DNA of 64,000 nucleotides. Origin: a virus. Where the stretch lies: the IMG/VR virus record IMGVR_UViG_3300037541_000804, positions 64,001-128,000 of that record; one strand, given 5' to 3'. A program made the translations under genes and the position numbers. A model generated the notes under the pieces. It saw only the letters and a program-made list of their open reading frames with translations, was not told where the DNA came from and did no database searches. Below are positions 1,592 to 62,808 of the stretch, one piece after another. The first letter of the stretch is position 1. The number at the start of each line of letters is the position of its first letter.

Positions 1592-1837
1592 TTACACGGT
1601 TACGCGATAAAATGAAAAAGGCTTTTTGTCAGATAGGCTGCCTACCTTAAACTCGACTGGAGTTTGAGTTCCGTCTTTCTCAAATTTATAATGAGTATGG
1701 ATTGTTTGGCCGCAAAGAGACGTGAACGATGAGCCTCCAATTTGAATAGATGGCTTTTCGAGTTTAGAAGGATCAAATTTCTTAAACTTTCGCCGCTCCT
1801 GCCAATTGGCAAATAATTCTTTAATTTTTGCAAACAT
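1592..1837 (-). CDS. Hypothetical protein
   Basis: 81-aa ORF co-oriented in the structural operon. Confidence 0.5.
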   Translation of the reverse strand: MFAKIKELFANWQERRKFKKFDPSKLEKPSIQIGGSSFTSLCGQTIHTHYKFEKDGTQTPVEFKVGSLSDKKPFSFYRVTV

Positions 1838-1848
1838 ACTTTTGGCCG

Positions 1849-2397
1849 TTAAAATTTCATACCCAATGCTTCCATAGCCTTACGCTCTTCTGGATTACTT
1901 GGATTAAGAGGGCGACGGACAAATGGTTTGGGCATTTTATTCATGGCCCCAGCAGCAGCATTGCGCGAAAAGAACGACTCTTCTAGGTGTTTTTTGAGAA
2001 TCGGCGGACTCTCGAACTTGTTTAGCTGTAGTTTTTCGGCCAAAGCTTGCATGCTTGGGTAGGTCATATCGTTGAGCTTGGCTTTAAACGTGTCGAAATC
2101 GGTTGTGCCGAAGACGTTTGTTTGGTTGATGTTTAAGACTCGCTCAAGTTCTTCGCGGCTCACTTCGTCACTAGCAACAGCCACTTCTTGTTCGGGCGGA
2201 AGTTGGCCAGTAGTGATTTCTAGCAATTCTAGAGGGGTAGAAACCTTTTCTGCATTGTCGGCTGGAGGAAGAGATTCATAGCGACCATTCGCCACTTCTA
2301 GAGAAGGCGGGTTAAGTTTCGCAACAGCCTTGGCTAATTCGCCGATAGCTTTAGTTTGTTTTTCAAGTGCGGTGAGGATTGGGTCTTTCTTGGGCAT
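1849..2397 (-). CDS. Hypothetical protein downstream of major capsid gene
   Basis: 182-aa ORF; GTTAAT variant motif (2406-2411) 8 nt upstream. Confidence 0.6.
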   Translation of the reverse strand: MPKKDPILTALEKQTKAIGELAKAVAKLNPPSLEVANGRYESLPPADNAEKVSTPLELLEITTGQLPPEQEVAVASDEVSREELERVLNINQTNVFGTTDFDTFKAKLNDMTYPSMQALAEKLQLNKFESPPILKKHLEESFFSRNAAAGAMNKMPKPFVRRPLNPSNPEERKAMEALGMKF

Positions 2398-2415
2398 ATA
2401 AAGATATTAACAGCC

Positions 2416-2455
2416 AAAAACAAGAAACCCCACCCTTTTTCAAGAGCGGGGTTTC
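2416..2455 (-). terminator. Intrinsic terminator after major capsid gene
   Basis: GAAACCCC (2424-2431) / GGGGTTTC (2448-2455) stem followed on the minus strand by a T-rich tract. Confidence 0.65.
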
Positions 2456-2477
2456 CACACAACACACACCAAACAAC

Positions 2478-5970: not shown

Positions 5971-6207
5971 TAATCGTTTAGTTTAGCCTCAAACACGATT
6001 TTAGCGGTTATGGCAGGAAGTGAGAATCCTAGCTCCGCCGCTTTACAAAACGGAAGACTCGTTGGAGGCGCAAGTTTGATTACGAGGATAAACAAATTTC
6101 AAAGGTCGCCCTTTCTAAATCCCCATTTCTGCATGGGGAGAGGAGGGGTCTTGGCCGAGACTCTGTAGTTTTGTTTGTTGTTTTCTTTTTGCGCGGCGAA
6201 TTGCTCC

Positions 6208-6236: not shown

Positions 6237-6242
6237 AACAAC

Positions 6243-15682: not shown

Positions 15683-15723
15683 GTTTAATATTAACGGCCA
15701 ATTACACTAATTAGTGGTAATTA

Positions 15724-24442: not shown

Positions 24443-24702
24443 GTATATACCATATTACACATTTCAATGGAATAGCGAAACCAGAGGCCGACCCTGTATT
24501 CTATGCAGAGGAACACCAGTTGTTGAAATTTATAATCCAAAGCTATGACTAACCCGCTAAAACCATCAAATATAAAGTGCGACTGCGGCGAACTCCCCAA
24601 AGACCATTTCCAAGGAGTCGGCCAATGTCTAAAAAACGGTTGCACATGGTATCATCCTAATGTAAAGTATATCAGCAGAAAGAAAAACGGCCCGAAATAA
24701 TT

Positions 24703-25387: not shown

Positions 25388-27086
25388 TTCAAGCAATCTT
25401 TGATTTACGCCGCCAAAACCAAACATATGACCAAACACCTAATTCCCTCCATCCAGAAATCTTTGGGGCCAATTTTTGAATACTTTTTGGCCGAATTAGA
25501 AAAACAAGACGGCAAAAGGTTGGATATACGGTTGACTGTTAAAGAAAATGATGTTAAACTAGAGTATGGAGTATCGCCTGTAGATCATGACTAACAACCC
25601 AACATACATTTCTGGCCAACAGGCGTGGGATAAGCTTATTTCGCTCGACTATACAGGAGAAAACTCGTATCACAATTTTTTTCGTGATTGGGATATTTTT
25701 TATCGTCCACATTGGGCGTCTCTTGGAGATGGCAAAGGCAAAACCAAGGAGGAGCCTATTCAAGTCTCATTTAACTGGATAATCCATAGGCAATACAACG
25801 CTCACGGTTATCAAGCGGTAGAAAATCCGCCGTATTATGAACTGTGTGTAAGTATGCCCCCAGATTCGAGAAATAAGCATTTTCCAACGTATCGCGCTCC
25901 ACGATTTTTTTGGAATAACAAAAGAGGCTTAAGTGAGATTTTTCTAGCGCCAAAAATTGATTTTCAAATCTAATTTCTTATCAGAATGACCAAAGACCAA
26001 CTAAACTTCCGCCGCACGATTCTGGCCCATCAAGCCATTATTGATGCGTCCAGATACGCTATTGACGAGGTGGCGATGGCTGTTATTGATGATTTTCACT
26101 TTTTGGATTACAAGGTATCAACCTTCTGGACTTGCGAAGATTCGCCGATTGGAGTTTGCGTATGGGTTTTAAACCAAGGAATTTTTGATATAAATTGTCG
26201 GTGTAGGTATTGCGGCAATCCCGTGGAGAGAAAATGATTATGACCAACCTAATCAAACGCTCCCTAACGACAGCCCTTAAACTCCCTTTCTCTATCGCGT
26301 GGGACTGCGTTAGTCTTGGTAATATGGGTGAGGGCAGTTCCACGTCTAAGGTTTTAGCCGAACACAAGAGAGAAAAGCAAGTGGACGAGATTCTAGAACT
26401 TTTAAAGAGAATTGGCGATTCTCAAATTTGAGAATACTTTTGGCCGTATGAAAGGCTCTTATGAATTTATTTCCGCCGATTGTTGGCGGCATATTCAAGA
26501 ATGCGTTGATTCTGATTGCGAATGGTGCGAATGGTTGGTAGAAAACGGGTTTACAACATCTTGTGAGGCTTGTGGCCACGTTGGAGATAATGAATCAGAT
26601 GGTTGGGATTCTATTATAGATGAGAATGGTGGGGTGACAGTTTTATGCCCCGAATGTAAAGAAAAGATTTTGGCCGATTGTTCTTGACTCTTTTATTTCC
26701 CTGTCTTAATATACCACATGTTCACAGACGACTTTATCCACGGCGAATGTAATGGCCGCAATATGTATGATTATGATTACGAAGAGGATGAATATGGTTT
26801 TGGCCCGCCTCCGAAGGTTAATCTTATCGGCAAAATTAAAGCCAAAACAGCTAAAGCAGCGCTCTTTGAATTGGCCGCTGTTGACCCATATACAGAATAT
26901 CCAGAAGATTTTGAAATCGGTGGGGAACAGTGGTTGCCGTTATCACAAATCGAAACGTCATCATTGCAGTCACCATACAATTTAGAGTCTGTCCCAGAAG
27001 AGCTAAAAGATTTCGTAAAAATCATTGCCCCGCTTTGGCTTGCGAATAAGTTTAAGAGTCGTTTTAAGGGAAAGATTGTTTTTTAA

Positions 27087-29711: not shown

Positions 29712-32700
29712 ATAGTTAGAGCGTTAGAGTTTGGATTATCTGCGAGGAGAAATTGTCTCCCGTCACTCTTAATATGGAATAGATTTTTCCACCGTGCAAC
29801 AACCAATTCATCTTTTTCGGCGTTATAATTTCCAGAACGGGCCATTCTAGCTTTTATAAGCGGCAGGATCATAATCTGATTCAATTTTTCGCCCCTAATA
29901 CTGTTCAACCGAACATCATCATTCAACCTAGGTTGCGTCCCTAGTCTCTATAGGTGAACGGCGTAAAACGCTCTCGTAGGAAATTCTCCCTCGTTATCTC
30001 CCGTAGGGAGATGCCCTACGGCGAGTATATTTGCAGGCTGTACTATTTGACCGAAAACAAAAACAATTTTCTCAAAAATGAGAATCCGCGCTAAAAAATC
30101 GAATCGTTTAAATTTGTTCTGAGCGTCAGGATAGCGGCCTCAAAATCGGGCGCTTTAAAACGAAAGGAAACAGCCCTATCGGCTTATTTGCCAACTTAGG
30201 CAAATATCTTATTTGACCGTTAGGGCTTTCTCAACTCATGCCAGCGGCCTCATCAAATCTTCCAATGGGTTAAATCGGGCGGGATTTGCATAGCAGCCAG
30301 TGTTTTGCTCAACGGGCTTATTTGCGGCAATCCACTTTTCAAAGGTGGTTGTTGAGTGTCCTTTAGCGACACTCTCGCCAAACTCGCGCATGATTTTATT
30401 TCTAGCGTCTAACTCATTTTCAGCCAAAACAGCGATTGAACAGCCATATTCATTATTATAGAATTTATAACCGTCCATCCAACGGGTGAGGGAAACATCT
30501 GGAATTGTTTTTTCCGTGACGAATTGACTCAAGCGAGAATCATATTCCACTCGCTCGATTCTCAATTCTGAGAATTTGGCGAGAATGTTTTCTGGCGACT
30601 CTTCAAACATGTTATCTGGAATGATTTTTTTCAGCAGTTTCAAAGCATTTGAAACATGATCCACGCAATTTCCACGCGCTTCAATTGTGGTACGCATGCC
30701 GTACCAGCCCTTATTAGTGTGGTCGGACTGGAAACGCATAACAATCAATTCATCCATGGAGGTTGAATTGAATTCGCCACGCTTCAAAATTTGAAGATTG
30801 AGATGCTTAAAACCATTTGAGGTTTCGCTTGAGACTCTGAAACCGAACTTTGGGCAGGTGATTTTGTTCATGCTTTTAATATGCCACGTTGGAAACTATA
30901 TGCAAGTTAATTCTGCTCTTTTTCTTTGCGCCAAAATATAAAGAAATAAACCTTGCTCCGACTCCTTTTCTCGATTATCTTAAAACACGGGAGCGTGAAG
31001 GGAGCGCCAGTCCGACAAGTCTAAGGGAACGCGCCCAAAAATAATTATAAAAACCATAATCCCTTAAAATTTTACCCTTGCGAGAATTTCCTAAGATATT
31101 CGCGGCCCCTTATGTTTCGGGCGTCTTAGGGATTGTCGGTGGTTTGTTTTGTAAGATAGCGCGGGACTTCCGCGTTGTCAAACTTTTATTTAGGACTTTT
31201 CATCCAAGTGCTCCCATTTTCATGCAGGGTATATCCTAGATTAATCATAAAGTCGGCGAATTGTTTTTCATTCATGGGTTTATTTTACCACAGGGAAAGA
31301 AGGGAATCAAGTATTATTTGTTATTTCGGCCAAAATTAAAAAGCATTTTGTTTTCTCACTTTTGAGAATGCAGTAAAAACGGGGTCTTAGGGTGTTTTCC
31401 GATAGGATAACCCCTAACAAAAAGGCCCGCCCTCCTTTTGAGAGAGCGAGCTAAAACTTTTCACCCTTATTTGATGCCGAAGGGTTTCTAGGGAGAGGTA
31501 GAAGATGCACCTAGAGGTTTTCTGGTTATGGAAATACTCGCCGTAGGGCATAGGGGAAACCCCTATAACCCCTAGGCATTATCAATCTTTGCTTTCTTCG
31601 TCCTCATCTTCTTCTTCTTCTTCAAGCCATCCGATACGTTGCGCCATATCGGCCACATCGCTTTCGCTCATGTATGCAAGGCACTCGCGCACGATTGCGG
31701 CGGGATCAAGAACGCCTTCGTCCATCATTTCGAGGACTTTGCAGGTTGCTTGGCGAACGTTTGGGTGAGTTGAGAATCTCATAGTAAGGGAAGTGTAAGG
31801 GTTATTTGAGCGGGCGCAAGTTAATTTTTGCAGTTTTCTTCATGAATTCGCCGTCCTTCTGAAACGATAGTCATGGCGGCGGAAAAGGAGATTTCTTTAC
31901 GCTCGGCGAATTTTTCGACTGTCAAATAATCATTGACGTATTCGAGGTAGAGGTCAGAGAGAATGGAGCGGAGTGATTTGTTTTGCATGAGAGTAATATG
32001 CAGGTTATTTGAAGGAGTGCAAGGTTTTTTTTAAACATTATGCACAATATATTCATGGCACGCGGCCAAACATTCACGCGGGGAACCTCCTACGAGCATG
32101 CGCTGGCAGCAATGGCGAGCGAGCTGCTCAATTGTGGCAAGGTCAATTGCAGAGTAATTGCATCTCCCCCCTACCATAAAGCGCATAATGTGGCCTTTTT
32201 CGGCCAATTTAGCGTTTAAGATTTCAACGTCAGCAATGAGGTTGTTGTGAGTGTATCGTTTCATGGAGAGTATTATATAAGGATAACAGAGAGAATCAAG
32301 AGGTATTTGTAGATTAGGGCAGGAAAAGAAAGTTAGGCTAGGCTAAGATTGTTATTTGCGAGAAAGAAAAGCCAAGGATAATACTTTACCAACTAGTCAA
32401 CTATTCTCTTCTCTAAAAACAAACCTTTTCTCTTTTTCTCCCCTAGTATTCTTCCTTACTGTTTTTCCATTAGGAACTCGTTTATTTTCTTTACTAGGTC
32501 ATCATTGTCTTTTCCATCTTCATAAGCGGCGCAATTTCCCAAACGGCGCTTTGCTTTAACAAGCAAGTCAAGCATTTTTCTTTGATCTAATGGGCGTTCC
32601 ACGTTTTGTTCCACGTTGGCAGCATGAATGCTCGAAAGGGTTATTTCATCGCGGAAACACTCTCTAAATCCTTCGCGAATTCCAGTTTCAATTTCAGAAA

Positions 32701-33324
32701 GCGAAGCTGGTTTTTGTCCGCAATTTGTTTCGACTTCAGTAACGAAAACTTGTTTGTTCATGGTCTAAGCTAATCTAAGATTCCCCACCCGTCAAGCCAT
32801 AAAAAAGAAAAAAGACTAAACAAGGGCGGCCAAAAATATCCAAACAAAGGATTTAACACGTCGGGGAGTTCAATCGTAAACAAATCTTGTCCTAGTTATT
32901 TCAGTATGCCCGCAATGGGCGCATTTGCAATAATAAATCTCTTCGCACCAACCTTGATAATCGACAAATTCTGTTTTATTTTGGAAGATTTGATTACCAT
33001 ATTTATCTCTTGAATACCAATTTGGGTTTTTAGTCCAAGAGTGGCTTCCTTTACGGCAATTAATTTCTCTTCGATTTTTTAAGAAAAGACAGAATTTATT
33101 TTGGAGGTTTTTGAAAATGCTCATAATTCAGTTATCCATTTCTTCCCATTCTTTTTCAATCGCCCAATGAGAGGAAAAACTTCGTAAATAAAAACCATAA
33201 TCGTCTCCTAGAGGAATATTTCTATCGCTCATGTATTTTAAGCACTCTTCTTTTGTGCCGCGAAAGACGATTTCCTGTTTCAGATGCGTTGTAATCATGG
33301 GGAGACTATAATCCCTCAATTATT

Positions 33325-33563
33325 CCTTGTCAAGCGGCCAAATCACAAAAGACAATTCACGGCTCAATAATAATGCTTTGGATTTCTTTTGGGATTGAAC
33401 GATAACCATTCTCGGTTTCGAGAATCAAAAGAACATCTTCATCCATCGCCTCCAAAACTTCGGAAAAAGTGATTTGTTCGATTTTGGCGTTTGGATAAGT
33501 GATTGTTGCTTTCATAAGCGAATAATAACCCCTACTTCATACCTTGTCAAGCGGCCAAATCAC
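33325..33563. repeat. 22-bp direct repeat CCTTGTCAAGCGGCCAAATCAC (33325-33346, 33542-33563)
   Basis: Exact repeat; on the minus strand it reads stop codon + TTGGCCG + TTGACA -35 box. Confidence 0.85.
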
Positions 33564-36531
33564 TTACTTGGAAATCCTTTTAATTCGATTTTCATTCTTT
33601 CGGCCATTAGTCGCACGCCAGAAAGCAATTCAGAACGGCTCCTGTCGAGGGAAACGTGGTACATTCCAACCTGATATTGCTCGCGTTTAGGTTCAAAACT
33701 GAAAACCTCTTCTGGATTCCAAATACCATAAGTGGTTTCCTTTACGACGATTCCGTTAGTAAGGGCGAATTGAATGATTTGGTCTTTGGTCATGGCAAGA
33801 TATTACTTCAATATTTTAAACTTGTCAAGCCGCCGTCAAATCTTTTTCGCGTTCAACGGAAACATTTCCATTCGGCCATTTTACCTCATAGCGGCCAAAT
33901 CCATTCTCCATATAAAAACCATAAACTTCACCAACTCCAATCCCCTGATTAAAACGAGAATATGGAGACGGCTTAACTTTCGCACCCATTGCAAAAATCT
34001 GTTTTTCTTTTCCTGCGGGCGTGGCGGGGATTTTGAGGTTTTTGTAGTAGCCAAAAAATTGGCGGTTTTCTTCGATTTGTTGAAGGACAGAAAGAGCGGC
34101 GAGTTTGTTTGGGTTCATGCGGAGAATATATCAGCTAATTATTCCCCACGCAAGCTAAAAAGATGAGTTTGTGTCTAAACTTCTTTCGGCCAAACAATTT
34201 TTTGTCCCCATGTTCTACCGTCGTTATCTTCTAGCAGTTCGGGCGGAGTCAGTTCTACGACTCTAAAACGATTCAATTTATTCTTTTCGGCGTATTTAAG
34301 AGCGGCCTTTTCACTAGGAAAGCGTTTTGCCTTCTTAGTGTTCATGATTGACCGTGTTCTTCCATCCGTAGAAATGTATTCCCATAGTTCCCCGCTAGAA
34401 TCGGCGTAAATGTAAACCTCAATTTCAAAACACACGGGGCGCGGCAATTTCTTAACCTCATCATCTGGCTTGAAGTCTGCCGTTATAATCACGTCTCCGC
34501 TCCTTGCGGTGATAGAAATCCTTGGGATTTCATCAAACAAACCAGTTAATTTACCAATCCTTTCAACCTTAGCGTACTGCCAGTTTTCCGCCATATCATA
34601 ACCAAAATCTAAAAGAATTTAATCTTTTGGGAGGATGTGTTTTGCTTTCATTTGTTTTTTAGGGTTAAGCCCTATTTCTTTAACTCAATCCATGCCCCTA
34701 TCAGCACGCAAACCAGCAAGAACAGCCCAAACATTAAGCAACCTCCTTGGTTTTGTATTTGACGGCTCCCACGGATACGAAGGAAATCCCTTTCATGGCG
34801 GCAAATTCCTTAATATCGGCCAAGCTCCCGATATACTGTCCAAACTGATACTTGTCGCCCTTGAATCCAAGTTTCTTGAGCTTGGGAGGAAGTTCCGCAA
34901 CCTGCCCCCTGTCTTTCTTACTTGCGAAGTTCCACAGCCGCTTTTGATGCTTAAAGCGTGGAGATTGCCAGATTGAGGATGGTTTGATTTCGCTGCGGGG
35001 TTCAATTTCTTGTTTCATGGGTAGAATATAGCGTTTAAAAATTTACTTTGCAAGCTCAAATCCAATTACTTGCACAAATTTATCGCCATTGCTGGCATAA
35101 ATAAATCCGTCGCAATCAAAATCATCTCCCGTGTCGGGATTAATCGGCACGCCCGAATAATCAAGATTTGCCAAAGAAATAAATGTTTCGTTAATTTCCG
35201 CGCCCTCTTCGGTTTCTTGGAAATAGCGCAGGAATGTCGAATCGGTGATGGGTGACGTTTTCATAGGATTATATTAGCAATTAACAACTACTTGTCAAGT
35301 CCACAAGCGGCCAAAAATCGGCCCTTGTCAAAGTTCCCGTTGTCATTCATGTTTATAACAACGATTGCGGCGGCTTTTGCTTCTGCTATTTGCCCAGCCT
35401 CAACATAGAGTTTGATGAAACGGGCGGCGAGGATAAAATGCTTTTTGCTCATAAAAGACTATATACTGGTTTAAACCCTTGTCTAGCGGATTTCCATCAA
35501 ATCATTAATGCTTTCCACCGTGTCGAAAATTTTCTTCAACTTGGCACTTTGTTTCTGACAAGCATTAAAGGTTTTCTCCGCCTTGCGCGAATCGGCATCA
35601 TATCCAAATTCGCTGCAAAATTCCTCAAAAGAATCGGGACAATTAAATTCGCTTGAACAGCAGGCAAGAACCGAATATTCGTCCAATTCAGTTTTCCCCG
35701 CGTTGAAATTGTTTACCGAATCAAAGAAATCAAACGACACACGGCGATTCTCATTTTTGAGAGTCACGATAAAATGATTAACTTTTCTGTCAGGACTCCA
35801 TGGCGGAGACTTCTTATTGACCAGTTTGGCGGAAAACTTGATTCCGTGTTTAGCAAGGAAATCGGCGGCTTGTTGTTGGTAGTCGTTCATGGGGTGAAGT
35901 TAGGTTAGATTTGGCCGTTGTCAAAATTATTCGGTAATTTCTCGAATATCCTCGGTTCCATTATTGTTTCGGAAGTCTTCATCAATCCAATCTTGGATGA
36001 ATTCCAGAAAGCCCTCTTGTGTTGGCTCTTCCCCGATTTCTTCGCAACATTCCAGATAGGCGGCTGGATTGTACTCCATTGTGCGGGTGACTCGTATGTT
36101 GTTTAGCTTCATAGGGCGAGTATATAACAGGTTAATGGTTGAGTCAAGGAATTTCTACAAGGCACTCGTAACTATTTTGTGGAGATTGTTTTTCATATTG
36201 TTTTTCCAATTGAGAACAATATCTTTCGGCCCTTTCAACAGAATCGAAACTGGATTCTTCCCTACGATGAAATTCAACGCCGTTTCGTTTGAAAATAAAA
36301 ATCAATTTCATAGGTTTATTATACCAATTATTTCGGCCAGTCAACTAAAAACGAAAATGCCCCTTGTCTTTCTGTTTCGCAAACCAGCTTCCCTTTTTAT
36401 ATTGTTCGTTTTCGGTTATTTTTTCGCGCTTAAATTCGTCAAAATTTTCTACGTCGTGCCATTCGGTTATTTCGCCGTTTGGGGATTTGTATGTAATTTG
36501 ATACTTTGTTTGCATAAACAACAATAAACGA

Positions 36532-38502: not shown

Positions 38503-38507
38503 GTATT

Positions 38508-38536
38508 ATTTTAAGCTAAAATTAAGCAATAGTCAA
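38508..38536 (-). promoter_or_regulatory. Example sigma70 promoter whose -35 contains the upstream TGA stop
   Basis: TTGACT(38536-38531)-17 nt-TAAAAT(38513-38508)-5 nt-ATG(38502). Confidence 0.75.
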
Positions 38537-41500: not shown

Positions 41501-43052
41501 AATTTTGAGTCTCCACAAGCGTAAAGACGCAGCAATCAGGGTTTTCCAAAAGACAAACGTGCGTTCGTCTAGGTTGAATGATTGGGCGGTTGTCATTTGT
41601 TAGTAAATTATCCCAAACAAGTCATTTGAATTGTGCATCCACCCATCCAAACGCGCCCATTTTCAACTTTTTCCTCCGAATAAACGAGGGTAAAATCTTT
41701 AGGTGAAACGGTCTCAAAAATGTTAGAGTATTGGCGGATAATATCAGCCTTCAAAAGGTCAAGCATTTCTTCGGAGTTTTCGCCGATGAACGCCTTGATA
41801 TTGTAGCACAAATCAATTGGTTTGTCAAAACGCCAAACAACAGCAAGTGTGTGTTTGTAGTCGTTTTTGTTGAAGCGTAATTCGACTGGAAAAATGATTC
41901 TCATGGTTAGATTATATAAGCAATTGGCCGCTAGTCAAGCCCTACCCATAAACTTCTCAATCGAATCGCCAACTGAAACGCCCCACATTGGCACAAGCTC
42001 ATCCGTTCCAACAAAACAGGGCTTTGTGTTCAAAATTGAAAGCCAATAGCCCTTTGCTAGAATATCAACGCCGTTGTCTTTTTCGATTCTATTTGCCGCT
42101 TCTTCGCTGGTTACTTGGATGCTAACGCAACTTTCACATCCGCCGTTTGGATTATCGGTTAAAGGAATAGTGATTACATTATTGTGAATGGCGTTTAGCA
42201 TGTGCATTCCCATCCCGCCGTATTCATCTGGATTAGCGGCCAAATCAGCGGCCCGAATGGTTTTTTCGTCTTTGCGGAGATAGTAGCGTGTTCGTTTCAT
42301 GAGAATATAGTCGGTTGTTTTTGTCATTAGGCAAACCACTTTTCGGCAATTTTGTCCTTTATTTTTTGGCGCTCATTTTCGGCGGCCCAATGTTTTACCT
42401 CTTGAATAATCTCATAAAATGTGGGCAAATGGTAAAAATTAAATCCGCCGTATTCGCAATAGTCAAGGACTTGTTGGCCGTTTTTCTTTTTGTAATAGAT
42501 TTTAAAGCCTAGGTCTAGGAGTTGTTGTTCAGTGAATGGTTTGTTCATGGTTTATTCAATTTCAATTTCGGCGTGAAATCCTACAATTTCTTGTTCATTG
42601 TATGAGCCAGCGTATTCTTCTTTGATTCTTACGCTGGAATCTTTAACCTTAAATTGGGTTTTCGCCGAAACATATTCGGCGATGGCTTGGTGGATTTCGT
42701 TTTGTTTTAGGACGATTTGCATAGTTTAGTTCCCCACTCTTGAGCAGTTAATGAATCGGCAATCTGGATGCAGAAACTCAAACTTATCCCTCACATCGTT
42801 TTCATAAGTCCCGCGCATTTCAAAGTAATCGCGCTGACCGAATTTGTCAATAAAATTAACCTTGAAAAGGTAAGTTGTCTGGTTCATATTAGACACTTGG
42901 AATCATTCGCTGGACATTTTGCCTTAGTTCTTTCGCTTTTTCGTAAAGAAAAAACAAATCAAGCCTATCTGCATCATCTTCGGAAGCTGATTTTAGAAGA
43001 TTTTCTATCCCGTCAAGAATGTTTTCGCAGTCGTAGAGGTTGTTTAGAGTAA

Positions 43053-44348: not shown

Positions 44349-44548
44349 TCACGGCAACTTGTCAAGTGGCGGATAAAAAACCTCAAAGATTTCGCCGTCG
44401 TTTGTGTATCGTCCATTCACTTTCCAGAATGGCTCAACGTTCAGAATTTGCTGCTTCTTTGGGGCGAAAATTTCTGGCAATGCGCCAAGAAAAACTCCGC
44501 CGAGAATTGCTAGAACAAAGAGTCCTTTCATGGGTTTAATATAGGGGT

Positions 44549-48476: not shown

Positions 48477-48496
48477 TTAGAAAAACAATTCAAACA
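48350..48496 (+). ncRNA. Predicted omegaRNA (scaffold plus flanking guide) of TnpB copy 1
   Basis: 3' segment conserved with copy 2; established TnpB biology places the guide just 3' of TCAA. 5' limit approximate. Confidence 0.65.
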
Positions 48497-48668
48497 AGGA
48501 ATGACATGGGAAAATCATGGTGTTCATGGGTGGCATATTGACCACATAATCCCACTGTCCTCTGCCAAGGACGATATTGAACTGTTGAAAAAACTTTGCC
48601 ATTATACTAATCTTCAACCTCTTTGGGCCGAAGAAAACAGGATTAAATCTAACAAGATAACAGCTTAA
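48477..48668 (+). pseudogene. 3' remnant of an HNH endonuclease gene
   Basis: LEKQF..GMTWENHG..WHIDHIIP...HYTNLQPLW, paralogous to 23654-24442; no start codon; begins exactly at the TnpB right end. Confidence 0.8.
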
Positions 48669-49584
48669 CCACTTCTCGCCCTTTCGATGATAGCTCTCGC
48701 TTCCCATTAAGGCGCAAAAATCCCTTCTTTAATAGGTGATGCTCATGATCTTGACGCAAGGCTGTAGCTGGAACGCTCATGCATGCTGAAATTTCTGTCA
48801 GGGTCATTGGCCCGCGTTCGTAAAGCAATTTTAGTATCCCAAGCTCCAAATTATCGAGTCCGTGAACTTTAATATCTGCAATATTTGAGAGATTCGCAAA
48901 GTCCGCCGAATCAAAAGAATTTCTTTTCTTAATCGCACAAAAGTTAGCCACCTTGCGAGCCATTTGTCCAGCATCGCGAGGATTTGGCCTGATACTATCA
49001 ACAATTTCCTCCAAAATATTATCCTCGAATTCGATTTCTGGCACGTTTAATTGAATAATTTGCATTAGTTCGCTCTTTGAATACGGTGCAAGAGAAACAA
49101 CCTCCATTCGGCTCTTCAACGGTTTGCCAAGTTTATTAGAATCCGTAGTGGCAAAATTCATCGACAATTTGCAAAAATCAAACTCATAATCTGTCCCGTC
49201 GTGATTAACGCGGCGAATATGGCTCTTTTCAGTGTTAAGCAGGGTCAAAAACCACGTTTGGACGGCGCGAGGAAGCTCGTGTGACTCGTCTAGCAAAAGA
49301 CAAACGTTCTCCCTATCAACAATATGAGGCATATATACATTGTCGATAAACCACTGAACGCTTTTAACGTTTGCAGAGTTAATTTCGATATATTTGCCCG
49401 TTGTTCCAGACTTAGTAATCTCTTTTGCAAACTCTCGAATGAACCTTGTTTTCCCAAACCCAAAAGCCCCCGTGAACAAAAGATGTGGCAATGGCCGTCC
49501 TGCTTCGCGGGTTTCTAGGTGAAACGATAGCAAAGACTTGATTTTATCCTGTCCCGTTAGATTAGCGAATAGTGTTTTAGTCAT
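48649..49584 (-). CDS. ruvB: RuvB-like Holliday junction branch-migration ATPase
   Basis: GQ....L..., LPHLLFTGAFGFGKT, LDESH, ATT...L.KPLKSR, PR, GLD, C-terminal wHTH. Confidence 0.8.
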   Translation of the reverse strand: MTKTLFANLTGQDKIKSLLSFHLETREAGRPLPHLLFTGAFGFGKTRFIREFAKEITKSGTTGKYIEINSANVKSVQWFIDNVYMPHIVDRENVCLLLDESHELPRAVQTWFLTLLNTEKSHIRRVNHDGTDYEFDFCKLSMNFATTDSNKLGKPLKSRMEVVSLAPYSKSELMQIIQLNVPEIEFEDNILEEIVDSIRPNPRDAGQMARKVANFCAIKKRNSFDSADFANLSNIADIKVHGLDNLELGILKLLYERGPMTLTEISACMSVPATALRQDHEHHLLKKGFLRLNGKRELSSKGREVVKLLSC

Positions 49585-50669
49585 GTGAGTATATTAGATG
49601 ATTAATTTTCACTGTCAAGAATTACTGCGGAAAACAGTGTTTCGCCATCCCTTTCGGCGGATTCCTTACGACTGATTTCATTACAGGCCACAAGCGCTTT
49701 GTAATTTTCGCTTTCTGAGAAGTCTTGAAGAAGGATTTTTGAAATTGCTTCAAACAGTTCTTCCTTTTGTTTCGGGGAGACTGGTTGAGAAGCATAATGA
49801 TTCCAGCAAGCAGAGACCATGTTAGAGCATTCTTTGAGCACTTGTTGTTTTGTTATCATAGCGTGAGTATATTAAGTGGTTAATCGGGCCGTGTCAACTG
49901 AATTGGAAAGCTTCAACGACAATTTCTGGCTCTTTTTCAACTTTCGACGGAATTACTTGAAACGTTTGGGCGAAGTTTTTTGCTGCCCGTTTTTGAAGAT
50001 CAACTCGCGAAGCCTTGAATTCTTCGTCATCAGTGAATCCGAGTGCGCGGAGTTGGTTGATTGTCATAGTGACAAAGCTGGTTGAGCCGTGGGTTCTCAT
50101 GTGGTTATTTGTTGAAAAAGTCTAGGTCAGTAAGGAGCTTTAGTCCAGCGAATTCTTGGGTTGGAACTTTTTTATCCCAATATTTCATGCGAGTTTCAAA
50201 AGAGGCGTGTTGGCAATCGTTCATGATAATACTCTCCATTATTTTTGCCATTAGTCAAACCCATTCCCAAACACTTCATCGTAATCGTAATTAAAATGCT
50301 CACAATAATCAAACACTGTGTCCTTTTGGCGGCGGGTTACATCGTCGCCCCTAAATGTGGATTTCCTACAATCGCCAAGCCATGATAGGTTTTTAACGCA
50401 CATCCAGCCTTGTGACAGAAGCCAGCTTTCCCATGATTGGTCAAAGCCGCTCTTTGAATATCGGCCCTTTTTACGAGAATTTTCATTCGCGCCGCATTTA
50501 AAAACCGCCAAATAGGTTGCAGCAATCTCATGTTTTGCGCCGCTAAATCCGTAAAAGTCGCCGTTTGGCGCAATCCACGCATTATATTCAAAATTAGCGT
50601 CTGGAATCTCTTGTGGGATTTTGTCTTGGAAGATTATGTTGATCTTTTTCATCCAGCCAATATACCCAT

Positions 50670-51113
50670 TTACTTCCCCTTGTCCAGTCTTTTGTATCCC
50701 CAAGTTTTGCGGCGATTTGCTTCGTGCCACTCAATAGGTTCTCCGTGTAGGCAATTATCGTAATAAGCATCAAAGATTACGCCGTTCTTAATTACTTGCA
50801 AGTGTTCGGTGGTAAACACCAAATATGTGCCGCGTTTGAATTTATCAACTGATTTTAAAATCGGGCGATTCTTTAGCCAAACGGTTTTTCTCTTTCGGCC
50901 AAAGTTTTTGGTCAGAGAGAGGGCTTCATCCCACGTCATATATTTGCGCCAAGCGTAGATTTTCTTTTTCGGCCAATTCTTTGACTTGCGCAATTTTCCA
51001 AGTCGCCATTGGACTTTGTAAACTGGTTCTCCCGTGATTAGGGAAACAGCCACCGTTCCACAAGAGAAATCACACTCGGGAAAGTCGGCCCGATTAAAGG
51101 TTTTCAACTTCAT
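50670..51113 (-). CDS. Papain-like (C39-type) peptidase-like protein
   Basis: SCGTVAVSLITG ... EHLQVI...IFD. Confidence 0.45.
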   Translation of the reverse strand: MKLKTFNRADFPECDFSCGTVAVSLITGEPVYKVQWRLGKLRKSKNWPKKKIYAWRKYMTWDEALSLTKNFGRKRKTVWLKNRPILKSVDKFKRGTYLVFTTEHLQVIKNGVIFDAYYDNCLHGEPIEWHEANRRKTWGYKRLDKGK

Positions 51114-51158
51114 CTCTTATTTTGGCCGAAAATAACGAACAAATCAAGAAAAAAAGAT

Positions 51159-51406: not shown

Positions 51407-52718
51407 CGCAAAGAAAGCCCCTTCCTTTAGGTAGGGGATGAATTTGCGGTCAAACAAAATAATTAAAAAGTTTTTGGGTGTTTTTTAACAATTAGTGTAA
51501 TATATGGTGATTGCACCACCGCGCTTACAAATTCCGAATTTATCCAACGACAGCGCAAGAACAAATCTTGCGGCAGACGATTGGGTGTACGCGGTTCATC
51601 TATAATTGGGCGCTGGCCCAAAGAAGGGAGGCATGGGTGCAAGATAAGAAAAACATGACCTATGCAAAGTCTTGCAAAGCGTTGACGGAGTTAAAAGACT
51701 CGCCAGAGCGCGAGTGGCTTAACGATGTGTCAAGCGTTTGCTTGCAACAAAGCCTCAATAACTTGGACGTTGCATTCGGCAATTTCTTTAAGAAGCGGGC
51801 GGCATATCCCAGCTTTAAGTCTCGCAAAAACGGTGGTTCTGCGCGGTTTATGGGCAACGCCTTTCGGCTGAAAGGCGAAAGCCTCTTCCTCGCGAAGATT
51901 AAAACGCCAATTAAAGTTCAATGGTCGCGCCCGCTTTCCAGCGTTCCGAACTCCATTACCGTTTCTCAAAACGCCAGCGGTCAATGGTTTGCGTCGTTCC
52001 TTTGTGAGGAGGAAATTGAAAAGCTTCCGCCTTCCAACGGTCGAATCGGTATCGACGTTGGTATTGAAAATTTTGCCACACTCTCGGATGGGTGCAAATT
52101 TCAATCTCCAAAAGCAATTCGTAAACTGCGCAAGAAAATGGCACGCCTGCAAAAGAGTCATTCGCGTAAGCAAAAAGGCTCCAAAAACCGTGAACGCACT
52201 CGCAAAAAAGTCGCCCGCCTTCACCAGCATATTTCAGATGTGCGCAAAGATTTTCTCCACAAACTGTCAACTCAACTCGTTCGCGAAAACCAAGCGATAG
52301 CGTTAGAAGACTTGTCTGTATCAAACATGGTTAAGAACCGCAAACTTTCTCGCTGTATCAGCGAGCAAGGCTGGCGAGACTTTCGCACCATGCTTGAATA
52401 CAAATGCGAATGGTATGGGCGCGAGCTACTAATAGTAGATCGTTGGTTTCCAAGCAGCAAAACCTGCTCATGTTGTGGAGCGAAGGCTAGCTTTGGCCTA
52501 GAAACAAGGCAATGGACGTGTGGCGGCTGCGGCGCTAGCCATGACCGAGACGTTAACGCCGCAAAAAACATTTTGGCCGCTGGACAAGCGGTGTCAGACT
52601 GTGGAGTGGACGGAAGACCAACGAAGAACTATGTTCTTCGGGGCAGGACACTACGAAGCAGTAAATCAAAGGCGCGAGCCAAGGAATCCCCGTCTCTTTA
52701 GGGCGGGGAGGATGTCAA
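51398..52718 (+). mobile_element. IS200/IS605-family TnpB-only element, copy 2
   Basis: TTAC then AAAG-CCCCTTCC..GGTAGGGG left end; GAAT-CCCCGTC..GGCGGGG..TCAA right end. IS608-like signals; left boundary inferred. Confidence 0.8.
51511..52701 (+). CDS. tnpB: RNA-guided endonuclease TnpB
   Basis: Intact RuvC D/E/D motifs and zinc ribbon; TTG start 9 nt after GTGTAAT, same spacing as copy 1. Confidence 0.95.
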   Translation: MHHRAYKFRIYPTTAQEQILRQTIGCTRFIYNWALAQRREAWVQDKKNMTYAKSCKALTELKDSPEREWLNDVSSVCLQQSLNNLDVAFGNFFKKRAAYPSFKSRKNGGSARFMGNAFRLKGESLFLAKIKTPIKVQWSRPLSSVPNSITVSQNASGQWFASFLCEEEIEKLPPSNGRIGIDVGIENFATLSDGCKFQSPKAIRKLRKKMARLQKSHSRKQKGSKNRERTRKKVARLHQHISDVRKDFLHKLSTQLVRENQAIALEDLSVSNMVKNRKLSRCISEQGWRDFRTMLEYKCEWYGRELLIVDRWFPSSKTCSCCGAKASFGLETRQWTCGGCGASHDRDVNAAKNILAAGQAVSDCGVDGRPTKNYVLRGRTLRSSKSKARAKESPSL

Positions 52719-52861: not shown

Positions 52862-54574
52862 AAGAAATTAGGAATGCAGCTTGTGGTTCGTATAAGCGGC
52901 TTTGAACTTGGGATAGCTCTTGTATTTGGTCAAGTCTTTTTCAACCATTACGCGGTGAATGCTGTTGATAGAGCAACCTCGCTTGCGCATAGCGCTAACG
53001 GTTTCCGCCTCGTCAGAAGCCATAATCGCCCTTGGTCTTCCGAGGTTCTTAATGCGGCCATTCGCAAGAATTTTTGCGCGAGCTACTAGCTGATCTACGA
53101 TTTGTTTGTTTTTGTTGTTCATTTTAGTTTAGGTTTATTTTGTTTTTTCAGAAGGGGTTTTAGGGAGTTTGGCCGAAAGGCTTAACCCCTAAGCGTTAGC
53201 GATAATAGACTGTAGTTCAAAAACCACGGATTGCAAGTCGTTTTTAATTCGGCGCAGGGCGTCTGGTTGTTTTTCGTGTTTGGCGATTGAACCACCGATA
53301 AGATAATACATGTTTTGCACCACGTCAACTGCTTCCGTGGAATAGTCGAGAATTTCTTGTCGCGGGTTATTTGTTAGGCTGGGGGCGATGCGGTCGATGA
53401 GTTTCATAGTTTAGTCAATTCTAAGGAAGTCTTCGCCTTCCGTCAAGTTATTTGTGTCTATTTTTGGGTCAGTTTCATCAATTTCGTCGCCAGCGTCAAA
53501 ATGTTCGGTTTCCCAATAAGGATTCCAGCAACAACCGTCGCCGCAAAAGTCGCCGTTGTCAACGTAGAGTTCGCAAGAGTGTAGGAGGGAAATCATGTGT
53601 TTTGTTTTTAAAATTATGCGCTGCCGTAGCGGAAACTTTTCCAGCCATCTCCGTAATTAGAAAATCCAAGTTCTTCTAATTTGGCCGTGTCTTCTTCTGA
53701 AATTTCAGCATCGTCATAACCGCAAATCCACAATTCGTCATGCTCGCAATGAGTTTGGTATGGTTCGTCACCATATTTAAGGAAAATGGTTAGTGCTTCG
53801 ATTAGGTTTTTCATGGGTTATTTCTTGAGAACCAGTAGAACTGGCAGTGCGACGAAACAAATCGCCGCAATCCAGATTAAGATTTTGAAGATTGTTTGCA
53901 TATTAGTTGAGAACAATAATCGACTTATCTGGCGGAGTCAAGCCGAAATTCTTTTGCGGCGGGGTTTTATTTGGCCGACCATTCGCCGCTAGCTGAAATA
54001 GAGCAACAGCAACAACACCAGCCATAAATATAGACAAAATCAACCAAACAATTGGCCCAAAAATAATCCATCCAAGGAATTTGGCCGTTTTTAAAAGCAT
54101 AATTTTCATGAAAATAAAGACGCAAAAATGAAAACAAGAACAGCCGACAAACCCAATACACAAACGAAATTCTCTGGGGTAAAGGTCATTGTTTTTCGAT
54201 TAGTTTTTTGGCCTCGTTGACACAATCTAACAAAAAATCATTCATTTCCTTCTCGTCTCCCGTGTTAGCGTTTTTTGTTAATGAGCGGGAATAGAGCGTT
54301 TTTGATTTGTTGTAGGGTGAACATGTGTTGTTAGTCTTCGTTGTCAAAATATTCGGTGTATTGTTTACCATTGTCAAATAGATAATTCAACAAGGCTTCT
54401 CTATCTTCCGAAACGGCGATAATTGAGACGGCCAAGGATTCATCCTTTGTGCGAATGTCTTGAAGAATGCAGTATTTATTTTTGCCGCTACCATCATCGT
54501 ATTTTTCGATATGGCAGTAGTCAGGATGTACTGCTGGGCGAAAGGAGATTTGAGGATATTTTTCTTCTTTCATG

Positions 54575-54733
54575 CTAATATCGGGCGCGGCAATCTACAT
54601 TTAGGCAAATTCCTTGGCCGTGACGGGTAAAGTTTAGCGTTGTTCCGCATTTTCGGCAGAAACCGCAGAATTTGCAGATTTTGCAGATTTTGCCGAGGTA
54701 GTAGAGAAAGCGGAGATGTAGTTTGCGAATCAT
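54575..54733 (-). CDS. 52-aa protein with a tandem CxxCxxCxxCxxC tract
   Basis: Own translation MIRKLHLRFLYYLGKICKICKFCGFCRKCG...; ATGA-coupled to the upstream gene. Confidence 0.55.
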   Translation of the reverse strand: MIRKLHLRFLYYLGKICKICKFCGFCRKCGTTLNFTRHGQGICLNVDCRARY

Positions 54734-59900: not shown

Positions 59901-60492
59901 CGCGAACGTGAAAGAGTCTAAAATCCCCATTGTCATCCATGAATTTATTGATTACTTCCATCTTGTCGCCGCGAGGTAAATCTGGCATTGCGTCGTTAAT
60001 AATTTGCCAAAGTTTTGGGTAACTTTTATTCTCGATTAAATGACGAATCGTGTCTTGACACTCTTCTGGAACTAAGAAATCCTTGTATTTCATTTCCTCC
60101 AAACCTTCAATCTTTGGCGGAGGTTCGCCGCTTGGATTCAAATCCGCACCGTCAAATTCTCTACCACTGCCAAAATATCCGCCGTTTTTCTTTAGCGCAA
60201 GATATTGTTCAATTTGTTTTTGGATTTCGTAGGCGATTTGGGGTTCTTTGCCGATGCTTGAGTTGCAAATTCCTGGCCCGCCGTTTGGTGGATAGTCTGG
60301 GAAGAACGCTTGCTGAATTGGCCGACAAAGTTCCTCCATTTTATCCCAGTCTAAGTCATGGTATTGTTTGGGGAAGATTTGTTCAAGAGCGGTTTTGGGC
60401 TGGTTAATACGGAAGCGTTGAAAGGCTTCTAGCGCGGCCAAAATTACTTGAATTTGTGGTTCGGAAAGGGTTATTTTCATGTGTTTTATATA

Positions 60493-60729
60493 TTAAACTA
60501 AGTTCCCCGATTTGTCAACGGGCCATTCTGGATGTTTTTCGTCGTTGAATGGGCGACTAAGTTCTCCGCATTTTGGGCAACTTTCATCGCTAGGACTTTG
60601 GCAATCGCGAGATTTTTCCTTCCAATAGTTTTCGCAATCTTCACAATGAAAGAACCTATAGCCTGCAACGGGTTTTCGCGGCTTCCAATGAGTTTCGGCG
60701 AGTTGTTGGATGGCGTCATTCAAGTTCAT
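60493..60729 (-). CDS. FmdB-like zinc-ribbon protein
   Basis: FHCEDC...CPKCG. Confidence 0.55.
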   Translation of the reverse strand: MNLNDAIQQLAETHWKPRKPVAGYRFFHCEDCENYWKEKSRDCQSPSDESCPKCGELSRPFNDEKHPEWPVDKSGNLV

Positions 60730-61164
60730 GCGTAAAAATCTATTCTCGCTTCCATGTGTAATTGGGCGTTTTTATCTAACTTTTTAAACTCTTTGCAAAT
60801 CAAGTAAAGATGTTTCGCGGCGTTCATTCCGCTCGTTTCGGCGCGAAAACAAAATGATTGCCCGTTTTCCTGCTTGTCAAAAACAATGTCTTCGCCGCCC
60901 CAAATTAAATCAACAAGTTTTCTTATAGAAACTCGTTTGGAATTGTGGGTTCCTTTGATGTGTGTCCATTCGCTCATAGGTTTTAAATTTGCGCTGTGAG
61001 AACTTCTTCATACGAGAATACGGGCACAAACAAGACCCACCAAGTTGTTTTCTTGATTTTTGCGTTGTAGGTTTTAGCGTGAGAGATGCCTTCGCGGCCA
61101 TCTTCTCGAACGTTACAAGAGCGGAGGAAGATTTGAGTGGTTTTTTCGATCATATTTTGTCTTT

Positions 61165-61611
61165 TTAAATTTTAAGAGAGGAAATTATTGCCACGCACTT
61201 GTTTTTGCCCTTGTTGATGAAACTGTGCGGTTTTTGGTCATTCAAAATAAAAATATCAAATTTATTTAAATTTCCTTGATCTATTTTATCGGCCTCATTC
61301 ATGAACTGAATTTCACCGCTTCCATAAATCATAATGATAACGCAATCATATTTTGACCGAAAGCCTAACGAATCTACATGCATTCCAATACTTCCAAATC
61401 TAAATAAACGGCAATCCAAAACCTCCCTACCTATCTTTCGCGCCGAAAGAAATTCTTTGAAAAATTCCTCATGGTTGAATCCGCTGATTTCAAAAGAGTC
61501 AACTTTTTGGTCGCCATTTTCTTTATATTTAGGGAATTTTAGCGCTGAGAGTTGTTTTTTCTCGGATTCCGTTAATTTCATATCGTATGGGTGCATGCGT
61601 CCATTCTCCAT
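61165..61611 (-). CDS. Cupin/2OG-Fe(II) oxygenase-like protein
   Basis: HxD (MHVD) and distal PHS in a beta-rich domain. Confidence 0.5.
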   Translation of the reverse strand: MENGRMHPYDMKLTESEKKQLSALKFPKYKENGDQKVDSFEISGFNHEEFFKEFLSARKIGREVLDCRLFRFGSIGMHVDSLGFRSKYDCVIIMIYGSGEIQFMNEADKIDQGNLNKFDIFILNDQKPHSFINKGKNKCVAIISSLKI

Positions 61612-61917
61612 AGTTAAATATCGTATGGTGTAGTGTCAAAATTTACTTGCCATTCAACATTTTCATCATAAAAGTCAAACGAACAAACGACATTGCTGTG
61701 TCCAGCAAACTCTTTTCTATAAAAGACGGCAATATCTGGTTGGTTATCAAGAACATCCCACAATATATAAGGAAACTTCTTTAATTCCTCATTCAAATTC
61801 AAATCGGAAAGGGATGATTGGAGCATTCCTGCATATTTGTTTGTAATGTATTTGGCGGTTTTTTGCGCTCTTTTAATCATGGTTTGATATGTTCGCTATT
61901 TACAAGGATTTGTCAAC

Positions 61918-62808
61918 TTATTTTGCGGCCAATTCTCTAATTTTGAAGATGGCGTGACATTTTCCCTTTAACTCGGTTTCAAATAATACTTCCCGCCCAT
62001 AATTTTTTGGAAACGAAACTGGCAAGTCTGCATGTTTGCGCGTGCCGTTCACGCCCTCGCTGTAATGGAAAATTGGTTCAACGGGCCAAGTGTCGTAGGC
62101 CAAATCAAATGCTTCTTGGTCGCTCAACCCATCTGACAACAAAGAATGATGCAATGTATCAAAAGTAATTGGAATACCGCGAAAATACTCCACAAGATTT
62201 TTGACACTCCAAACACCGTTGGCGTTGTCGTTGTTTTCTAGGACAAGACGATTGCGAACATTGTCTGGTAGGCTGTCGTAAACTTCCCAAACACGATTAG
62301 CAATTTTAACAGGATCACCTTCGGCGCGGACATGCACGTTTAACGGCGAACGATAATCGTTTGGTAAGTCTAATAGGTCAAAGATTTCGGCGTGTTGTTG
62401 TAGATCAAGGATGCTGTTATTAATACACTCAGGATCGTGACTAGAAAGCGTGATATACTCGCTAGGATGAGCGGAAAGACGCAAAGGAGATTCGGCCAAA
62501 GATGCCTTGATTTGCTCGCAAACATTTTTGATTGCGTCGAAATTGGGCAAGTCGCTAATGCGCAGATTAACATTTTTATGCGTCAAGATTGGCGCGAGGC
62601 TACTAGACAGCCGATAACCTTGGATGTTGTTAAGCTGACAAAAGCGAATGGTCCGCAAAGTGTTTTTGAAATTGTGGAGAATGCGCTCGGAAAGTTCGGT
62701 CAACGATTCAGAGAATGGCCGCTTGCAAAACTGCGTGTAGGTCATTGTTTTGAAGAGATGGCCGTTGTCAGAGAGGGTTTTGGAGATGCAGCAGAGGGAG
62801 AGTTTCAT
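61918..62808 (-). CDS. uvsE: UV-damage endonuclease (UVDE)
   Basis: YRLSS..P, RLSAHP, VH, LVLENND, FDTLHH, FHYSE...HAD, ELKGK. Confidence 0.9.
   Translation of the reverse strand: MKLSLCCISKTLSDNGHLFKTMTYTQFCKRPFSESLTELSERILHNFKNTLRTIRFCQLNNIQGYRLSSSLAPILTHKNVNLRISDLPNFDAIKNVCEQIKASLAESPLRLSAHPSEYITLSSHDPECINNSILDLQQHAEIFDLLDLPNDYRSPLNVHVRAEGDPVKIANRVWEVYDSLPDNVRNRLVLENNDNANGVWSVKNLVEYFRGIPITFDTLHHSLLSDGLSDQEAFDLAYDTWPVEPIFHYSEGVNGTRKHADLPVSFPKNYGREVLFETELKGKCHAIFKIRELAAK

Follow-up and report, generated by a model that had tools for sequence, protein, structure and literature searches.

The heptamer TTGGCCG is the commonest of a family of over-represented GC-rich words in the genome of an uncultured lake phage

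The genome of an uncultured lake phage (IMG/VR record IMGVR_UViG_3300037541_000804) was found to carry the heptamer TTGGCCG, or its reverse complement CGGCCAA, in an excess that goes beyond base composition, codon usage, codon pairs and the strict avoidance of restriction sites. The bias acts at the level of DNA on the whole word, independently of frame and symmetrically on both strands; it steers the choice of synonymous codons and, mildly, that of amino acids, and it is equally strong in intergenic DNA. TTGGCCG is no lone word, being the commonest member of a family of GC clusters that behave alike. Tentatively, with a little less than an even chance, we attribute the bias to a pressure for GC clusters that would be cooperative and independent of frame, and that would be channelled by restriction-site avoidance. 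The genome, a single-contig record of 165,329 bp with 41.6% G+C that is rated as 100% complete, is that of a tailed phage with a gene for a T4-type large terminase. The window studied here comprises bases 64001-128000 of the record (64,000 nucleotides, in whose numbering positions are given below), and counts given for the genome refer to the whole record. Our own gene calls comprised 270 genes and left a total of 15.8 kb as intergenic DNA. Short words in excess and the avoidance of restriction sites are already known as genome features; the heptamer and its family of GC-rich words in an uncultured lake-phage lineage are new, and a literature search for the heptamer retrieved only primers and unrelated sequences.

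An earlier examination of the window made from its letters alone (hereafter, the sequence-only reading) had counted about 80 copies of the heptamer where about 4 were expected. An exact search returned 82 matches, 41 per strand (about 1.3 per kb), from a first copy at position 1706 to a last one at 62493-62499, and the expectation of about 4 is indeed what a mononucleotide model gives for this stretch. In 100 shuffles of the window that preserved dinucleotides, the number of copies was 10.0 ± 3.0 and never exceeded 18. The whole genome contains 174 copies (1.05 per kb), in comparison with 11.0, 21.6 and 45.5 copies expected from Markov models of orders 0, 1 and 2, and with 54.7, 71.8 and 140.8 copies at orders 3, 4 and 5. 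Shuffling of synonymous codons within each called gene led to an expectation of 65 ± 6 copies; the enrichment is 16-fold over base composition and 2.7-fold over codon shuffles. A first-order codon model that keeps codon-pair frequencies predicted 78.3 copies in coding DNA, where 158 are present. In absolute terms, the excess over the synonymous null (about 108 copies) is the largest of any word. The enrichment thus survived codon-shuffled, codon-pair-preserving and Markov nulls up to order 5, although the sequence-only reading had allowed that it might vanish under models of the latter two kinds.

Within genes, all six classes of frame and strand were in excess, from 1.9- to 5-fold. In comparison with the synonymous null, 54 copies were found in the frame TTG GCC G (12.4 expected), 34 in nCG GCC AAn (7.9), 43 in nnC GGC CAA (18.2), 15 in nTT GGC CGn (7.0), 8 in CGG CCA A (1.6) and 4 in nnT TGG CCG (2.1). 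Codon choice followed the complete heptamer. When the codon after Leu-Ala begins with G (135 cases), the pair TTG-GCC was used 53 times vs 9.5 expected, and only 13 times (14.8 expected) in the 210 cases in which it begins with A, C or T. Similarly, where the preceding codon ends in C, Gly-Gln was encoded by GGC-CAA 43 times vs 19.5 expected, in comparison with 32 times vs 28.2 elsewhere, and GCC was the codon in 28 of the 34 Ala residues that precede Lys and follow a codon ending in CG. The corresponding codon deficit was spread across all synonymous alternatives, including distant ones (CTT GCC G, 2 vs 10.2 expected). Intergenic DNA contains 16 copies, 5- to 16-fold over the 0.95-3.4 copies expected from intergenic Markov models of orders 0-3, at a density of about 1 per kb that equals the density within genes. 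Since the enrichment extends to every frame, to both strands and to intergenic DNA, codon-pair bias is no explanation, as had been argued previously for the Leu-Ala pair. Seven of nine copies previously listed as intergenic (1842, 6151, 31327, 32827, 35911, 41924 and 53169) do lie outside called genes; the copy at 35308 falls in a small called open reading frame (ORF), and that at 51122 stands at the start of a doubtful ORF.

Palindrome avoidance of the kind reported in phages (Rusinov et al. 2018, PMC6286503) is extreme in this genome, and shapes the contexts in which GGCC is allowed. The tetramer CCGG is absent (about 240 copies expected), as are 23 of the 64 hexamer palindromes, for which 439 copies were expected in total, and AGGCCT, GGCGCC, GTATAC, TACGTA and ACGCGT have only one or two copies each. 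All four RGATCY words are missing, and so are three of the four YACGTR words, the remaining one, TACGTA, being found once. Marked deficits were also observed for GGWCC (19 vs 93 expected), CCWGG (34 vs 104), CTGAAG (4 vs 72) and GAGATC (1 vs 63), and both CGCG and GCGC are depleted. On the contrary, GGCC is the sole tetramer palindrome made only of G and C that is not depleted, with 607 copies vs 490 by synonymous shuffling. Around this core, there is no CGGCCG or GGGCCC and a single AGGCCT, and TGGCCA has 56 copies, vs 96 expected from the Markov model and 60 from the synonymous shuffle. The palindrome TTGGCCAA, which is related to TTGGCCG, is avoided as well (9 sites). When the control phages T4 and Ma-LMM01 were put through the identical procedure per 50 kb, 7 and 0 hexamer palindromes were absent, respectively, in comparison with 26-30 in this phage.

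It could be argued that the heptamer is a purely passive by-product of this avoidance and of codon usage, with no extra pressure. Many of the words that rank high in Markov analyses are hybrids of two avoided palindromes, and those with GATC or CATG cores were fully accounted for by a null that takes avoidance into account (TGGATCG, 1.17-fold; TGATCTT, 1.01-fold; TTCATGG, 1.17-fold). The number of TGGCCG copies (237) equals that given by independence of the flanks with CGGCCG excluded (about 234), and a quasi-independence fit of the two-base flanks, with symmetric cells excluded, predicted 150 of the 174 copies of TTGGCCG. The same avoidance-aware null did not explain the GC-rich words. Synonymous shuffles in which the absent palindromes were forbidden gave 64.5 ± 5.7 copies; forbidding every absent word of 4 to 6 nucleotides gave 63.8 ± 4.4, and forbidding near-absent words as well gave 65.6 ± 6.0 (z = 18). 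Since the expectation stays at 64-66 whichever of these words are forbidden, avoidance alone is not the source of the excess: it removes words, and by itself produces no 2- to 3-fold excess of TTGGCCG and its partners. The passive reading, which is also contradicted by the intergenic copies and by the codon-pair model, is in our opinion very unlikely. A further candidate, the decay of CCGG or CGGCCG sites into TTGGCCG, was rejected, with CTGGCCG not enriched (15 vs 14.1 expected) and the purged CGGCCG sites (about 24 expected) too few to supply about 110 extra copies.

Analysis of other words revealed that the heptamer belongs to a family. Whereas TTGGCCG was 2.65-fold over the avoidance-aware synonymous null, similar enrichments over the synonymous null were observed for TCCGCCG (83 copies vs 25 expected, 3.27-fold), AGCGGCC (68 vs 23.5, 2.89-fold), TGGCGCAA (31 vs 12.6, 2.46-fold), TTCGGCG (126 vs 52, 2.41-fold), TCGGCCC (52 vs 23, 2.27-fold), TGGGCCG (52 vs 24, 2.2-fold), TCGCGCC (46 vs 22, 2.13-fold), TTTCGGC (159 vs 77, 2.07-fold) and GGCCCAA (65 vs 31.5, 2.06-fold). 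In all, about ten other A/T-flanked GC clusters holding GCCG or CGGC were in 2- to 3.3-fold excess, a range that includes the enrichment of TTGGCCG, an outlier in count only. Variants with CGGCCC, previously described as common, are indeed so (CGGCCC/GGGCCG, 108 copies vs 48.6 expected). The partner words bend codon choice in the same manner: TCC-GCC was used 20 times vs 3.5 expected before a G (10 vs 7.6 otherwise), GCG-GCC 17 times vs 4.7 after A (11 vs 11.1 otherwise), and GGC-GGA 24 times vs 8.5 after C. More generally, runs of 5, 6 and 7 G/C bases were in excess (1151 vs 940, 580 vs 430 and 256 vs 191) and runs of 3-4 in deficit. Eight mixed G/C pentamers were enriched 1.4- to 1.7-fold; homopolymeric and CGCG-containing pentamers were not, and those containing CCGG are absent. 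Among the words one base away from TTGGCCG, those with a substitution to A or T stood at about 1.0, and those with a substitution to G or C were enriched 1.4- to 2.4-fold. The sequence-only reading was thus right in proposing a genome-wide signal, which is a bias at the DNA level, but not in tying it to a single special word, since other words are enriched to the same degree and some of them outrank TTGGCCG in relatives.

These observations led us to favour a model in which G and C would be kept or gained preferentially beside other G or C bases, in a cooperative and context-dependent manner, through either a bias of mutation or repair or selection on local properties of the DNA. The favoured words would be runs of 5-7 G/C bases containing GCCG or CGGC, flanked by A/T and specific to the lineage. 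Avoidance would decide which GC-rich words stay available, and words with a GGCC core could accumulate only as the asymmetric combination of TTGGCC and GGCCG. TTGGCCG would then not be one heptamer recognised by one protein; its count may be the highest because it is the only abundant non-symmetric context of GGCC, and because it is built from codons that are common in this phage (TTG, GCC, GGC and CAA). The model is consistent with the absence of signs of a site-specific function, namely an even use of both strands, random spacing, no extended context and little positional conservation, as detailed below. It also agrees with a lineage signature, in that several related words are alike in enrichment and common to close relatives without being conserved in position. 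Genome-signature biases in k-mer usage likewise involve related favoured words that are common to close relatives, shift in rank and are absent in distant ones; the bias in this phage differs in spanning three codons and in being unusually sharp for one word.

Several results weigh against the GC-cluster model. TTGGCCG is the top heptamer at Markov orders 3, 4 and 5 (z = 16.1, 12.1 and 6.1), and is the most sharply bounded word, with enrichment falling to 1.13-fold or 1.27-fold once either end base is changed; ATGGCCG reaches only 1.33-fold. The contribution of avoidance is not apparent in the avoidance-aware synonymous null, in which the expectation was not raised, and the quasi-independence fit is partly circular, the marginals absorbing the tested cell. 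Single-step precursor words are not depleted, although simple directional mutation would predict their depletion. In addition, the dipeptides AK, GQ, LA and GR, four of the six able to carry TTGGCCG, took ranks 6 to 14 among the 400 dipeptides ordered by their excess over shuffles made within proteins, which resembles the imprint of selected words such as uptake sequences. The bias is strongest at the level of 6-7-mers (the Markov expectation rises from 72 to 141 between orders 4 and 5) and spans three codons. A dedicated recognition word, either Chi-like or bound by a protein, is on the whole possible but doubtful. Also doubtful, and slightly more so, is its particular form in which TTGGCCG would be the Chi-type word of the helicase-nuclease of an uncultured lake bacterium, or else the target of a phage protein for DNA transactions.

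The distribution of the sites bears on these possibilities. Along the genome, 85 copies lie on the plus strand and 89 on the minus strand, with an even density per 15 kb. The spacing between sites is Poisson-like (mean 946 bp, coefficient of variation 1.00), and the largest gap is 4.8 kb vs about 4.9 kb expected, which indicates that regular coverage is not under selection. Global polarity was not detected (range of the cumulative skew, p = 0.25), and the clustering of orientations was modest and local (71 runs vs 88 expected, z = -2.6). With respect to genes, 158 of the 174 copies lie inside them, 73 in sense and 85 in antisense orientation. The flanks of the heptamer carry hardly any information, apart from a T-rich position -1 and the lack of G at +1, which would create CCGG. 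TTGGCCG differs from polar words of the KOPS/AIMS type, whose strong skew switches at the origin and terminus, and from the stoperators of cluster A mycobacteriophages, which are mostly intergenic and in one orientation. An idea based on DNA curvature or packaging periodicity was dropped, since the autocorrelation of G/C showed no period of 10-11 bp.

A nucleoid or packaging protein site had been among the earlier suggestions, and Poisson spacing together with low positional conservation would be compatible for such a site only with a function that acts through density. In this reading, a phage-encoded protein with a DNA-compacting, packaging-associated, priming or nicking role would bind or use TTGGCCG at many places, the number of sites and not their position being selected. 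The word is sharply defined, each strand has about one copy every 1.9 kb, the phage encodes a DnaB-like helicase and a DnaG-like primase of its own, and the excess is confined to close relatives, as if it co-evolved with a lineage-specific protein. On the other hand, no candidate protein was identified, the exactly Poisson spacing offers no support, the relatives have a density of only 0.4-0.7 per kb and other words that rank higher, and about ten unrelated words with the same pattern would require several such proteins. We therefore regard a role of this type as quite unlikely.

Relatives of the phage were sought by means of the terminase. In IMG/VR contigs with terminases 47-85% identical, 6-13 copies of TTGGCCG were found per 15-21 kb, vs about 1-1.7 expected by base composition, and a relative of 148 kb that is 91% complete has 69 copies; the density in relatives is 0.4-0.7 per kb. 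The next clade (about 50% terminase identity) and more distant relatives showed no excess. In aligned DNA (66-71% identity), 3 of 19 site comparisons were conserved, vs about 10% as the background for heptamers in general, and this low conservation indicates that each genome keeps its own set of sites. When the close relatives were pooled, TTGGCCG reached 49 copies vs 19.5 expected (2.5-fold) and was third behind TCGCGCC and GCGGCGA; these genomes have the same style of GC clusters with different word ranks. The sequence-only reading had suggested a look at related phages and candidate hosts; the excess is present in close relatives but not in distant ones, nor in the sampled cyanobacteria described below. 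The control phages, too, had leading words about as strong: the z value of the top word per 50 kb was 6.3 for T4 and 7.0 for Ma-LMM01, in comparison with 7-8.7 for this phage. The top value of the Microcystis phage Ma-LMM01 (positions 1-50000) corresponds to GGCCCGC, with 43 copies vs 15 by synonymous shuffle, to which tandem repeats may contribute.

CCGG is also absent in many relatives (terminase 38-51% identical, G+C 28-44%), and others equally distant have normal counts, so that the taboo is clade-wide but patchy.

Among the readings that make TTGGCCG a dedicated word, the one with the best motivation is a Chi-like role. The heptamer would be recognised by a helicase-nuclease of the host of the RecBCD or AddAB type and act through its density, protecting double-strand ends and directing them to host-dependent recombination; both orientations would be present because ends arise anywhere. 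Chi sites are, like TTGGCCG, short asymmetric words (7 nt here, within the 5-8 nt of known Chi) that are strongly over-represented, lie in coding DNA in any frame and count by number and not by position, although to our knowledge no Chi has a sequence like this one. Several of the results above would fit such a role: codon selection by the whole heptamer (TTG-GCC only before G, GGC-CAA only after C), its first rank among heptamers at Markov orders 3 to 5, an equal density in genes and intergenic DNA, a density kept in relatives while positions turn over, and the imprint on dipeptides. Phages lacking recombinases over-represent the Chi of their host (Bobay, Touchon & Rocha 2013, PMC3784561), and this phage too has no detectable recombinase: when the complete genome was searched in six frames with Pfam, there was no hit to RecA/UvsX, Sak4 (AAA_24), RecT or ERF, other recombinase families and RecBCD inhibitors not having been searched. 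The Chi sites of lambdoid phages are concentrated in the segment that runs from the replication origin to the packaging site (PMC3784561), whereas the sites of this phage show neither an orientation bias nor a concentration in one segment. Against a Chi-like role are also the lack of global polarity, the presence of about ten unrelated GC-rich words that are as strongly enriched, some of which outrank TTGGCCG in relatives, the chance that divergent recombinases or RecBCD inhibitors escaped the Pfam searches, and the lack of a comparable density in sampled cyanobacterial genomes. Altogether, we consider that a Chi-like role is unlikely.

The uptake sequences USS and DUS of Pasteurellaceae and Neisseriaceae occur about once per kb, equally in both orientations and with near-random spacing, in genes where they leave an imprint on peptides, and their positions turn over. 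TTGGCCG shows the same spacing, peptide imprint and positional turnover in the phage. The uptake sequences differ in being host signals of 9-12 nt that owe their accumulation to biased uptake by competent bacteria, and accumulation by uptake is not expected in a lake phage of virulent type; no host counterpart was found.

The sequence-only reading had also proposed a motif like HIP1 (GCGATCGC) of cyanobacteria, maintained by methylation and repair of GGCC. HIP1 is likewise a hyper-abundant short word that is found in all frames and in intergenic DNA and bends codon choice (PMC4390886; PMC5861425); a link to methylation has been proposed, and it has been tied to orphan methyltransferases (Elhai 2015, PMC4390886; Xu et al. 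2018, PMC5861425). By analogy, a cytosine methyltransferase acting on GGCC or YGGCCR, together with repair of the very-short-patch type, would turn near-cognate sequences into the motif. TTGGCCG does contain GGCC and fits YGGCCR, GGCC is the one G/C tetramer palindrome that escapes depletion, and the absence of CGGCCG with an unenriched TGGCCA could leave TGGCCG as the only tolerated YGGCCR form. HIP1, however, is a palindrome enriched 15- to 300-fold (PMC5861425), whereas TTGGCCG is not its own reverse complement and has a far more modest excess over codon shuffles. The 5' T matters (TTGGCCG 2.66-fold vs 1.27-fold for A-, C- and G-TGGCCG pooled), the transition neighbours are not depleted (TTGGTCG 0.99, TTGGCTG 1.07, TTGACCG 1.29), and the partner words TCCGCCG and TTCGGCG lack GGCC. 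Searches of the complete genome revealed no C5 (PF00145), N4/N6 (PF01555) or Dam-type (PF02086) methyltransferase and no Vsr (PF03852). Finally, TTGGCCG reached at most about 0.5 per kb in about 300 sampled cyanobacterial genomes, in which a control word was also frequent, so that the density of the phage was not approached, and two cyanobacterial genomes sampled in detail (G195 and G223) showed no excess. These data speak against the HIP1-like proposal, which we consider highly improbable.

The same two cyanobacterial samples (50-66 kb) lacked 27 and 19 hexamer palindromes, respectively, of which 13 and 10 are also absent in the phage, and G223 (41.8% G+C) has only 6 CCGG in 66 kb. This overlap hints at a host with a cyanobacterium-like restriction landscape. 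Both samples are rich in HIP1, whereas CGATCG is absent in the phage, which indicates that the phage carries no HIP1.

The copies of TTGGCCG found in intergenic DNA of the window were the following, by coordinates, strand and context:
1842..1848, plus strand, outside called genes
6151..6157, plus strand, outside called genes
15695..15701, minus strand, outside called genes
24619..24625, minus strand, outside called genes
26440..26446, plus strand, outside called genes
31327..31333, minus strand, outside called genes
32827..32833, minus strand, outside called genes
33335..33341, minus strand, 1 base upstream of a TTGACA -35-like box, in the block gtgatTTGGCCGcTTGACAagg (from the flanking sequence)
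33552..33558, minus strand, in the second occurrence of the promoter-like block gtgatTTGGCCGcTTGACAagg (from the flanking sequence)
35911..35917, plus strand, in a promoter spacer, the minus (gene) strand reading TTGACAaCGGCCAA (from the flanking sequence)
41924..41930, plus strand, in the sigma-70-like promoter spacer of a near-leaderless gene, the minus strand reading TTGACTagCGGCCAAttgcttaTATAATctaaccATG (from the flanking sequence)
50896..50902, minus strand, outside called genes
53169..53175, plus strand, outside called genes
54614..54620, plus strand, outside called genes

A few of these intergenic copies adjoin -35-like boxes of early promoters, with variable position and orientation. 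The block gtgatTTGGCCGcTTGACAagg occurs in two early intergenic regions (33316-33341 and 33533-33558, minus strand) and has the appearance of a promoter module that was duplicated. In the copies at 35911 and 41924, the heptamer lies in the spacer just after a TTGACA or TTGACT box, and at 41924 a TATAAT box is followed by an ATG 6 nt further on.

With regard to gene content, the phage genome encodes a homing endonuclease and a clamp loader, and also TnpB proteins, two of them within the window (47399-48433 and 51637-52701). Each of these two tnpB genes contains one TTGGCCG at a homologous position, about 935 nt from the gene start (48332-48338 and 52573-52579), which indicates that this copy is older than their duplication. 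TnpB homologues, at about 50-56% identity, come partly from Actinobacteria and partly from filamentous cyanobacteria, and those of Gmd bore no names of taxa. The window contains no detected tRNA, and searches for psbA, NblA and WhiB gave no result. The phage is recurrent in lake-water metagenomes from many studies (sequencing runs labelled as lake water or freshwater metagenome). Contigs from four other lake samples were >99% identical to positions 31001-51000, with few variants, mostly in the region of the TnpB paralogues, and none in a copy of the heptamer. A megablast search with a 4.7-kb piece against known phages gave no match, and the terminase is only 22-26% identical to those of named phages; on both counts, an annotated close relative was not available.

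If the excess is compositional, as we tentatively favour, the phage would provide a clean natural example of how exhaustive restriction-site avoidance reshapes the GC-rich sequence space that a genome can use, with a further pressure packing G and C into short clusters across codon boundaries. A bias of this kind matters for the prediction of phage hosts from k-mers and for the null models used in motif discovery. If TTGGCCG instead serves for recognition, a new signal, Chi-like or bound by a protein, would have been uncovered, with which the host of the phage could be probed directly; a recombinase-less phage of 165 kb would then have loaded its genome with the word about once per kb, bending the choice of codons and even of amino acids.

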